This document shows positions 12,001 through 13,363 of a stretch of 13,363 nucleotides of DNA, piece by piece. Made by a program: the position numbers. This DNA comes from a virus (Duplodnaviria > Heunggongvirae > Uroviricota > Caudoviricetes): IMG/VR virus record IMGVR_UViG_2648501498_000007. One strand, given 5' to 3'. Numbering within the stretch: the first letter of the stretch is position 1; every line of letters starts with the position of its first letter.

Positions 12001-13363
12001 TGCAGTACTATCCAGGGAAACATCCGTGCGAAAAACCGGCAGAAATGCTGCAGCAGATAATCAACGCGAGCAGTCGTCCGGGAGACCTGGTTGCAGATTT
12101 TTTTATGGGTTCAGGTTCAACGGTAAAAGCGGCGATGGCACTGGGGCGTTGTGCGATTGGTGTTGAGCTGGAGACAGGACGTTTTGAACAGACAGTCAGG
12201 GAAGTTCAGGATTTAATCGTTTGAAACGGATGGGATTGCAGAATTAATTACGCACCATTATTATTCTGCTACCGGCCCTTTAGCTCAGTGGTGAGAGCGA
12301 GCGACTCATAATCGCCAGGTCGCTGGTTCAAATCCAGCAAGGGCCACCATCACATACCGCCATTAGCTCATCGGCAGAGAGCGTCAGCTTTCGAAACTGG
12401 CTGTGTGGGGCCCGGGTCCCCGATGGCAATCCATTATCTGCATTATGCGTTGTTAGCTCAGCCGGACAGAGCAATTGCCTTCTAAGCAATCGGTCACTGG
12501 TTCGAATCCAGTACAACGCGCCATATTCATTCTTCCAGATTTCTTCCGGCAGAGCCTTATACTGGAATATACCTGGCTCAGTATATTGTTGAAAATATTA
12601 TATGTTTGTCAAAAATAAAAGTTCTGTTAAGTATTGATTGAGTGTTTGTTATACGGTCTAATGGTTTTTTCAGTATTAAATATTTATCATTCATATGGTG
12701 TGGGTAGAGTGAATATTGATGAGGCGTCGGGGTGTTTCATCCTTAGGCAGCGTATTGATATAGTCAATGCAGCACGAGCAAAGGCCTTCAGCCGTTTGAC
12801 AGTTTTGTTCTGTACTCCTGATCGTCTTTTGGGAAGAGACGTTATTATTCTGAATAGTGATGCTATACAGAGGGTTTGCGATGAGTTCATGGTTGCTAAT
12901 TCAGAATTATTTGCTCTTGTTCAGGAGTACAACAGAATAGCCAGGACCTGTGGTATGGATGAACTTCGGATTACTCATCTGGGGTAGATACATATCTGGA
13001 TTATCACCTGTTACGGTAAAAAGTGATTGCTTACTGTTTTTGTGAATGGCATTGCAGCAGCCGGATAATGTCAGTGCTGGCTGACGGTGTGCTGGTGGCG
13101 GGTGTGGTGGTTGTTGCTTTCCCGTTGCTGAAAAAGAAAACGCCAGACTGTTAGCCGGGTATCAGTTAGCGGGAGAAATTTTTAAATACTTCACAATTCA
13201 GGCGGTTGACTGTTGTCTGGTTTGCGGGGAGTTTGTTAAAAGAAACTGGCATGGTGAATCCCCCTGTGCGGCTGTCTCTTGATCAGATCTCCTGATCAAG
13301 AGACTTCATCACCAGGTAACCCTCAACCATATCCTGAAGTCTGAACCAGCCATCCCACATGAC

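Follow-up and report, generated by a model that had tools for sequence, protein, structure and literature searches.

The window analyzed herein, i.e., the whole 13,363-nucleotide stretch of IMG/VR record IMGVR_UViG_2648501498_000007, is for the most part the early and late-regulatory region of a lambdoid prophage, with genes for a CI-like repressor, replication, the sok RNA, DUF968, and RusA, as well as a Q-type antiterminator, an N6/N4 DNA methylase, tRNA-Met(CAT), tRNA-Arg(TCT), and DUF3927. Its right edge is of another nature. Downstream of the genes for the Q antiterminator, the DNA methylase, the tRNAs, and DUF3927, the prophage sequence is broken by what is almost certainly the transposase-distal terminus of a copy of ISEc13, an insertion sequence that is already known, and this insertion splits the prophage small RNA gene STnc100. 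The features at and around the junction are the following, where L001 is a complete ISEc13 copy, L002 is a prophage homologue with the site empty, and L004 is a prophage contig with the site occupied.

13220–13271, plus strand: the 5' 52 nt of a prophage STnc100-type sRNA gene, interrupted by the insertion (Rfam RF02076 on the empty-site homologue)
13261–13271, plus strand: first STnc100 hairpin, with 5' arm CCCCT and loop GTGCGG, and with the 3' arm AGGGG beyond the insertion sequence, outside the window (RF02076 structure line, model positions 42–57)
13264–13271, no strand: target sequence CTGTGCGG, expected to be repeated to the right of the element as an 8-bp target-site duplication (both flanks of L004, single copy in L002)
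13272–13363, no strand: first 92 bp of ISEc13 (IS4 family, IS50-like), transposase-distal end first, the window stopping inside the element (100% identity to annotated copies)
13272–13290, plus strand: 19-bp terminal inverted repeat, identical to the IS50 inside end, and presumed transposase binding and cleavage site (sequence match)
13274–13286, plus strand: outer palindrome arm, end positions 3–15 (inverted-repeat search)
13281–13297, no strand: three GATC (Dam) sites, the first two inside the 19-mer as in IS50, and the third, in the inner arm, mirroring the first
13283–13363, minus strand: the 26 final codons of the ISEc13 transposase gene and its TGA stop, the latter at 13283–13285 within the terminal repeat (translation; L001 CDS 2512–3885; Tn5 transposase alignment)
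13292–13304, plus strand: inner palindrome arm, the minus strand of which reads G TCT CTT GAT CAG, i.e., (Lys)-Ser-Leu-Asp-Gln of the transposase

The boundary between prophage and insertion sequence is sharp. When 13000–13363 was compared by BLAST with phages and with 5,426 complete E. coli genomes, hundreds of 100% matches were obtained, all of which ended at query position 272, i.e., at 13271 of the window. The similarity shared with phage mEp460 and with hundreds of E. coli prophages thus ends one base before the 19-mer, and no genome among the 5,426 covered at least 80% of 13000–13363. These homologous phages and prophages read straight through the site and do not carry the palindrome, which bears out the association with an insertion sequence that had been proposed in an earlier, sequence-only reading of the window. 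The palindrome is not a structural element of the phage; it is the end of a known insertion sequence. A BLAST search with 13272–13363 by itself identified that sequence. Specifically, the 92 bp of 13272–13363 are 100% identical to E. coli chromosomal and plasmid copies annotated as ‘IS4-like element ISEc13 family transposase’ (the name ISEc13 follows ISfinder and this NCBI annotation), and they share the same end, transposase C-terminus, and stop position, with no difference detectable over these 92 of the 1,550 bp of the element. The same 92-bp end was matched in 2,464 of the 5,426 complete E. coli genomes, as well as in 1,030 plasmid records; EPEC E2348/69 has it at 30 places, and the highest number in any one genome is 32. 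ISEc13 is therefore found at unrelated sites, on chromosomes and plasmids alike, amid many different flanks, in the manner of a mobile element.

The prophage side of the junction retains the beginning of the interrupted gene. In the window, the junction reads ...GAATCCCCCTGTGCGG up to the last prophage base and CTGTCTCTTGATCAGATCTCCTGATCAAGAGACTTCATCACC... from the first base of the element, and the uninterrupted homologue L002 reads ...GAATCCCCCTGTGCGGAGGGGCAATCAG..., with the hairpin sequence ccccctgtgcggaggggc at the empty site. Positions 3221–3410 of L002, the first of which corresponds to 13220 of the window, match the STnc100 model RF02076 at 132.6 bits (gathering score 47). The fragment in the window scores 22.5 bits, under that gathering score, because the gene is cut after about 52 nt; given the score of the uninterrupted homologue, the flank at 13220–13271 is a truncated member of STnc100, a prophage sRNA related to PasD (bioRxiv 10.64898/2026.05.13.724894). 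In the first STnc100 hairpin, the element directly follows the loop GUGCGG and precedes the 3' arm AGGGG. In L004, which is a contig of an E2348/69-type prophage, the whole 1,550-bp element occupies the same site with CTGTGCGG on both flanks, and a single copy of this sequence is present at the empty site of L002. At the site in the window, the sequence expected after a complete element is CTGTGCGGAGGGG, and the rest of STnc100 is CTGTGCGGAGGGGCAATCAG.

A 25-mer spanning the junction retrieved four IMG/VR contigs with ISEc13 at the same junction, all mosaic relatives at 85–98% identity, one of which holds the full 1,550 bp; a pattern for the second junction matched L004 only. Ten prophage contexts came up for the DUF3927 protein, and the ISEc13 insertion was in none of them. 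The matching inverted end and the target-site duplication that the sequence-only reading had suggested looking for were found on L001 and L004, respectively, and the window's own second junction falls outside the window. Across 12 distinct full copies of ISEc13, the target duplication was 8 bp in five, 9–10 bp in three, and 4 bp in one, with none in the remaining three. As a separate observation, the targets of ISEc13 point to a preference for short palindromes of the CCCCT-N8-AGGGG type, i.e., for hairpin loops and terminators.

The architecture of the element itself can be read from complete copies. The copy at L001:2501–4050 is 1,550 bp long, carries its gene on the strand opposite to the 19-mer as written, and ends in CTGTCTCTTGATCAGATCT and CTGTCTCTTATACACAAAT, which are short terminal inverted repeats starting with CTG at both ends. 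Its transposase has 457 amino acids (CDS 2512–3885), and the TGA stop lies at end positions 12–14, inside the 19-mer. In the window, the minus strand of 13283–13363 encodes the last 26 of these residues, VMWDGWFRLQDMVEGYLVMKSLDQEI*, so the earlier statement that no transposase ORF is present does not hold; the ORF was missing from the ORF listing because it runs off the end of the window. Domain assignments, which were made on full copies identical to the fragment in the window, gave a match to the Tn5 transposase structure (PDB 1MUH) at E = 7e-83, the Pfam domains Tnp_DNA_bind, DDE_Tnp_1, and Dimer_Tnp_Tn5 (the last at 24.1 bits, under its cutoff of 26.7 bits), and NCBIfam transpos_IS4_3 at 511 bits. 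The full copies of ISEc13 therefore show the DNA-binding, DDE, and Tn5-type dimerization parts of an IS50-like member of the IS4 family. The copy in the window probably continues as such a complete element beyond 13363.

The closest well-studied system, IS50/Tn5, shares much with ISEc13 and differs from it in several respects. The sequence-only reading had taken the 19-mer for the IS50 inside end, and this proved exact when checked against a real IS50R on plasmid pO86A1 (L007), which begins with CTGACTCTTATACACAAGT, the outside end, and closes with the reverse complement of CTGTCTCTTGATCAGATCT at 1516–1534, i.e., AGATCTGATCAAGAGACAG. The 19-bp ends are identical, and TGA occupies end positions 12–14 in both elements. 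Past position 19, however, the interior sequences diverge, as that reading had also surmised, and the transposases, although alike in fold and domain order, are 41% identical, which places the window's element outside IS50. The other end of ISEc13, CTGTCTCTTATACACAAAT, is identical to the IS50 outside end at 17 of 19 positions; at position 4 it has T, as does the engineered mosaic end, where the IS50 outside end has A. IS50 makes 9-bp target duplications, whereas those of ISEc13 are mostly 8 bp. Judged by these comparisons, ISEc13 is a distinct IS50-like element with a transposase-distal end identical to the IS50 inside end.

Within the window, the 19-mer CTGTCTCTTGATCAGATCT occurs at 13272–13290 on the plus strand with 0 mismatches and is the sole match at up to 3 mismatches (0.01 expected). 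The perfect inverted repeat and the clustered GATC sites that had first drawn attention to it are both present. The two arms, 13274–13286 and 13292–13304, are 13 bp long and 100% complementary across a 5-nt spacer, and in 100 shuffles of the window, searched for perfect inverted repeats with a loop of at most 10 nt, the longest was 11 bp. The GATC sites start at 13281, 13286, and 13294 and form the only triple within 20 bp in a window that is otherwise GATC-poor (32 sites vs. 51 expected); such a triple arose in 4 of the 100 shuffles. The inverted repeat together with the GATC triple is not a product of chance.

By analogy with IS50, the 19-mer would be the site of transposase binding and cleavage, and it holds, within this one short stretch, the transposase stop codon and two Dam sites. 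IS50 shares the two GATC sites in the 19-mer and has a third of its own just inside, at positions 21–24. Dam methylation reportedly suppresses use of the IS50 inside end, and the ends of both IS10 and IS50 are said to be under Dam control; a methylated IS50 end is suppressed until replication leaves its GATC sites hemimethylated. The studies on this control that appear in the reference list of PMC3347997 are Roberts et al. (1985) and Yin, Krebs, and Reznikoff (1988), the latter on the IS50 inside end. ISEc13 likewise places GATC inside the transposase-binding end of an IS4-family element in Dam-positive enterobacteria, such that the same Dam control at its end is a reasonable inference, and a role of the 19-mer as a methylation-sensitive or binding site, as the sequence-only reading had suggested, is plausible on these grounds. 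The third GATC is specific to the lineage. In Vibrio-type relatives, GATC occurs just once within the 35-nt end segment, and in a Shigella variant (L008), the middle GATC has been lost. Our search of the literature found no mechanistic work on ISEc13, including on methylation sensitivity; the element is named only in passing.

The source of the palindrome becomes apparent on the transposase-sense strand, which ends AAG TCT CTT GAT CAG GAG ATC TGA TCAAGAGACAG. The palindrome exists because the last codons, Lys-Ser-Leu-Asp-Gln, which are followed by Glu-Ile-stop, are an inverted copy of end positions 3–15. Thus, the outer arm is the terminal repeat that holds the stop codon, and the inner arm is wholly coding sequence. 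We compared this arrangement across relatives gathered via protein (80 loci, one genome per species) and via a DNA pattern in metagenomes (120 loci). An end of the form CTGTCTCTTGATCA, with the stop at positions 12–14, is common to almost the whole family, IS50 included. The inner copy is present in all three elements of the ISEc13 lineage, from Escherichia, Scandinavium, and Pantoea (the latter two 73–77% identical), and in relatives of roughly 50% identity from Vibrio, Xenorhabdus, Alishewanella, Shewanella, and others. IS50 and the more distant relatives do not have it, and it is therefore confined to one clade, in which the terminal segment is mostly 35 nt, in some elements 38 nt, and in a few metagenome-derived elements 36–37 nt.

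Within this clade, codon choice, folding, and the way in which the stem is lengthened argue that the inner copy is maintained at the level of nucleotides. The Ser codon is TCT in 15 of 16 elements (gene-wide, 17.6%) and the Leu codon is CTT in 15 of 16 (gene-wide, 21.9%), counts that overstate the evidence because the relatives share ancestry and are not phylogenetically independent. The codon preceding Ser ends in G in every element with the inner copy, and neighboring codons vary freely at synonymous sites. The stem in the window has a predicted energy of -23.4 kcal/mol as RNA, and none of 200 shuffles folds as well. For 16 of the 17 members of the clade, the predicted energy of the last 40 nt lies between -12 and -22 kcal/mol, at z between -3 and -9; the exception, L027, in which the inner copy is degraded, reaches -9.0 kcal/mol and z of -1.8. 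Relatives outside the clade are mostly near z of 0, the strongest being L044 (-11.7 kcal/mol, z of -2.7); for IS50, which has neither the inverted inner copy nor the hairpin, the last 40 nt of an IS50-like copy (L075) gave -5.9 kcal/mol and z of about 0. Further, the stem has been lengthened differently by lineage, with TCAG/CTGA in ISEc13 and TCAC/GTGA in L151 and L035. From the codon choice and the folding across the clade, we infer that the inner copy was probably selected so that the last 35 nt fold into a hairpin, which would be built from the transposase binding site and the last transposase codons.

Two other explanations of the inner copy need to be weighed against a selected hairpin. 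The palindrome might have no function of its own: the codons of a conserved C-terminal peptide, Ser-Leu-Asp/Glu, may simply chance to complement the conserved end, with the palindrome as a by-product. A Lys-x-Leu motif does occur at this place family-wide (AKDL in IS50), and the inner arm lies entirely in coding sequence, as this explanation would have it. Ser and Leu have six codons each, yet the choice of TCT and CTT in 15 of 16 elements stands against backgrounds of 18% and 22%, in a setting where adjacent codons are saturated at synonymous sites. Moreover, one relative (L019) keeps Ser but has Val in place of Leu (TCG, GTT) and has lost the repeat, which means that the local peptide can be encoded without an inverted copy. 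We consider a mere by-product improbable on this evidence. Scarcely more probable, and still unlikely, is a second, subterminal binding site for the transposase in the inner arm, which would modulate synapsis as a decoy or an auxiliary site, the palindrome then being two facing sites and not a hairpin. The inner copy tracks its own outer end (TCAG at both in ISEc13, TCAC at both in L151 and L035), and a site bound by protein would be just as likely to show nucleotide-level conservation and joint changes in the inner and outer copies. The base before the stop codon, for example, covaries with inner-copy position 15, and this covariation is real but fits a hairpin and a binding site equally well.

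What separates a hairpin from a second site is the position-by-position pattern. Agreement between the inner copy and its own outer end is seen at positions 3–11 in 12–15 of 15 elements, but at positions 1–2, 12, 15, 16, and 18 in 1–7 of 15, while real ends are invariant at 1–14. In Tn5, it is the inner half of the 19-mer that the N-terminal DNA-binding domain of the transposase reads, and function suffers from mutations at nearly all positions of the end. With its match limited to 3–11, the inner copy cannot count as a complete transposase site, and a full second site is rejected on this basis. The pattern of conservation favors a base-paired structure over a second binding site.

As for what such a structure might do, the most likely role, in the model that we propose, is that of a stem-loop at the 3' end of the transposase mRNA. 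The coding sequence extends into the terminal repeat and leaves this mRNA no room for any other 3' signal, and a hairpin made of the element's own end would be a portable device that both fixes and protects the 3' end whatever DNA flanks the element. Stem-loops at 3' ends, such as the REP-type stabilizers, protect bacterial mRNAs from exonucleases, and the proposed ISEc13 hairpin resembles them in that its perfect stem, predicted to be stable, lies where the transcription unit ends and has no U-tract after it. It differs from them in that its arms are coding sequence and a transposase binding site. An intrinsic (Rho-independent) terminator was also considered and rejected. The bases after the stem are UUCAUCACC on one strand and AGCCGCAC on the other, so that no U run follows, and no terminator-like site was found on either strand of 12900–13363; for these two reasons, the hairpin does not qualify as a classical terminator. 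When the end of the insertion sequence was compared with Rfam, no RNA family was found to cover the palindrome, and the one match was spurious and microRNA-like (19.3 bits, gathering score 80).

The substitutions seen in relatives bear on which strand would act. Four single-arm changes can still pair, as G-U, on the antisense strand and leave A-C mismatches on the transposase-sense one, which speaks mildly against an RNA role of the sense strand; the structure may act on either strand, as RNA or as single-stranded DNA. Taken as a whole, the account in which the inner copy is a selected structural device of the ISEc13 clade, which relatives combine with an entry terminator at their opposite end, and in which it may also give rise to solo 35-bp palindromes without target duplications by fold-back template switching, is one that we put forward tentatively, as somewhat short of an even chance. 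No description of such a hairpin device, or of an origin for the solo palindromes, was found in literature searches on ISEc13 and on its end sequence.

These solo palindromes are relics of the same end found elsewhere. A perfect 35-bp palindrome, CTGTCTCTTGATCAG-ATCTC-CTGATCAAGAGACAG, lies between lldD and trmL in 794 of the 5,426 complete E. coli genomes (15%), and solo palindromes also occur at at least three other loci in metagenomes. They have CAG at both ends and no transposase sequence, and a target duplication was found in none of four distinct ones. An origin as internal deletions between the AAGAGAC repeats of a single copy was considered and is unsupported, there being no target duplication in these four. 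In one of them (L238), the right flank starts out as the left flank in reverse complement. If the solos arose by fold-back template switching at the palindrome, the restored CAG would be accounted for, as would the lack of a duplication.

The existence of such relics raises the question of whether the feature in the window might itself be a solo end or a miniature remnant, one of the options of the sequence-only reading, in which case no intact transposase gene would follow past 13363. The IS4-family end in that proposal stands, but the solo or miniature part finds no support here, as all 92 bp are identical to intact ISEc13. Decayed remnants do occur at the same insertion site as in the window, beside iss/bor on ColV-type plasmids (L009, 124 bp, 91.9% identity), the solo palindromes described above show that the end can stand by itself, and a truncation further in would lie past the end of the window. 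However, remnants carry substitutions and deletions in the very stretch in which the window is identical to intact copies. The inner arm in the window has no terminal CAG; it is followed by TT (13305–13306) and by transposase codons to the window edge, not by the AG that closes the solo palindromes. In addition, the four related prophage contigs have ISEc13 at the same junction, one of them in full. A solo end or remnant is thus very improbable for this site, and a copy of ISEc13 of which the window shows the first 92 bp remains the preferred reading.

For the prophage, the consequence is one of annotation. With the right edge of the window inside a mobile element, an ISEc13 insertion splitting the STnc100 gene should be entered on the prophage map, and the palindrome is not to be read as a regulatory site of the phage. 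For the family, no general picture is changed. Nevertheless, the clade-specific hairpin that we propose, the preference for palindromic targets, and the solo palindromic relics, which have become fixed in many E. coli genomes, are modest new observations on a little-studied relative of IS50 and may be of interest to specialists in insertion sequences.

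The ISEc13 copy at the right edge of the window splits, within its first hairpin, a prophage sRNA gene of the PasD-related STnc100 family (window 13220-13271, compared with L002:3221-3410, an uninterrupted homologue), of which the window retains only the 5' portion of about 52 nt (13220-13271). The identical split was also found in L004, an E2348/69-type prophage contig. More generally, ISEc13 is found in short palindromic targets, CCCCT (or CCTCT)-N8-AGGGG (or AGAGG), whose N8 core is duplicated on insertion, as drawn from L001 (a complete copy), L004, the collected loci L103, L111, L114, L172 and L208, and other insertion flanks. 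Vibrio-type relatives, in turn, are inserted within the hairpins of intrinsic terminators, and these patterns suggest that hairpin-like sites are markedly preferred as targets.

Other features of the window accompany this insertion:
7857-8028, sok antitoxin RNA (106.7 bits)
11175-12224, phage N6/N4 DNA methylase gene
12274-12349, tRNA-Met(CAT), downstream of a Q-type antiterminator
12447-12523, tRNA-Arg(TCT), downstream of a Q-type antiterminator
The homologue of the CAT-anticodon tRNA in L002 is annotated as tRNA-Ile. GATC is scarce across the whole window, with 32 sites against the approximately 51 expected from base composition.

At the transposase-proximal end, relatives from the clade whose elements carry an inner inverted copy of the end (L013, L016, L025, L029, L030, L032, L033, L035, L037, L039 and L060) have an outside-in intrinsic terminator directly after the terminus, within the first 60 nt of each element. 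Its stem sequences covary, it ends in a tail of 6-8 T, and it would presumably block read-in transcription into the element. The Escherichia coli ISEc13, in contrast, carries the hairpin CACAAATCCCC-ACCC-GGGGATTTGTG (L001:4014-4039), which overlaps the transposase-proximal end and lacks a T tail.

The palindromic, transposase-distal end also occurs by itself, as solo 35-bp perfect palindromes that consist of two ISEc13 ends facing each other and that lack a target duplication:
L010:2001-2035
L120, L133, L161, L206 and L238
Of 5,426 complete E. coli genomes, 794 carry the solo palindrome that lies between lldD and trmL. In L238 the right flank opens with the left flank's reverse complement.

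Separately, one ISEc13 copy has its 5-nt palindrome loop inverted, reading ATCTC rather than GAGAT on the transposase-sense strand:
L185, metagenome contig SKEV01000451.1, near position 3014 of the reverse-complemented locus
The flip changes the transposase C-terminus from ...DQEI-stop to ...DQIS-stop, and suggests arm-to-arm recombination within the palindrome.

The window's ISEc13 junction (compared over 13179-13363) recurs in at least four further prophage contigs (L003-L006), which upstream of it are mosaic relative to the window and 85-98% identical. The shared junction can be read as ISEc13 having been inherited along with the module, or as a hot spot that ISEc13 has struck repeatedly. 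A decayed 124-bp ISEc13 remnant lies at the same junction (GAATCCCCCTGCGCGG before it, CTGTCTC... after it) on plasmid pPSUO78_1 (L009:1501-1619) and in approximately 550 other plasmid records, and adjoins iss/bor on ColV-type plasmids. The insertion is therefore older than the move of the lambdoid fragment to plasmids.
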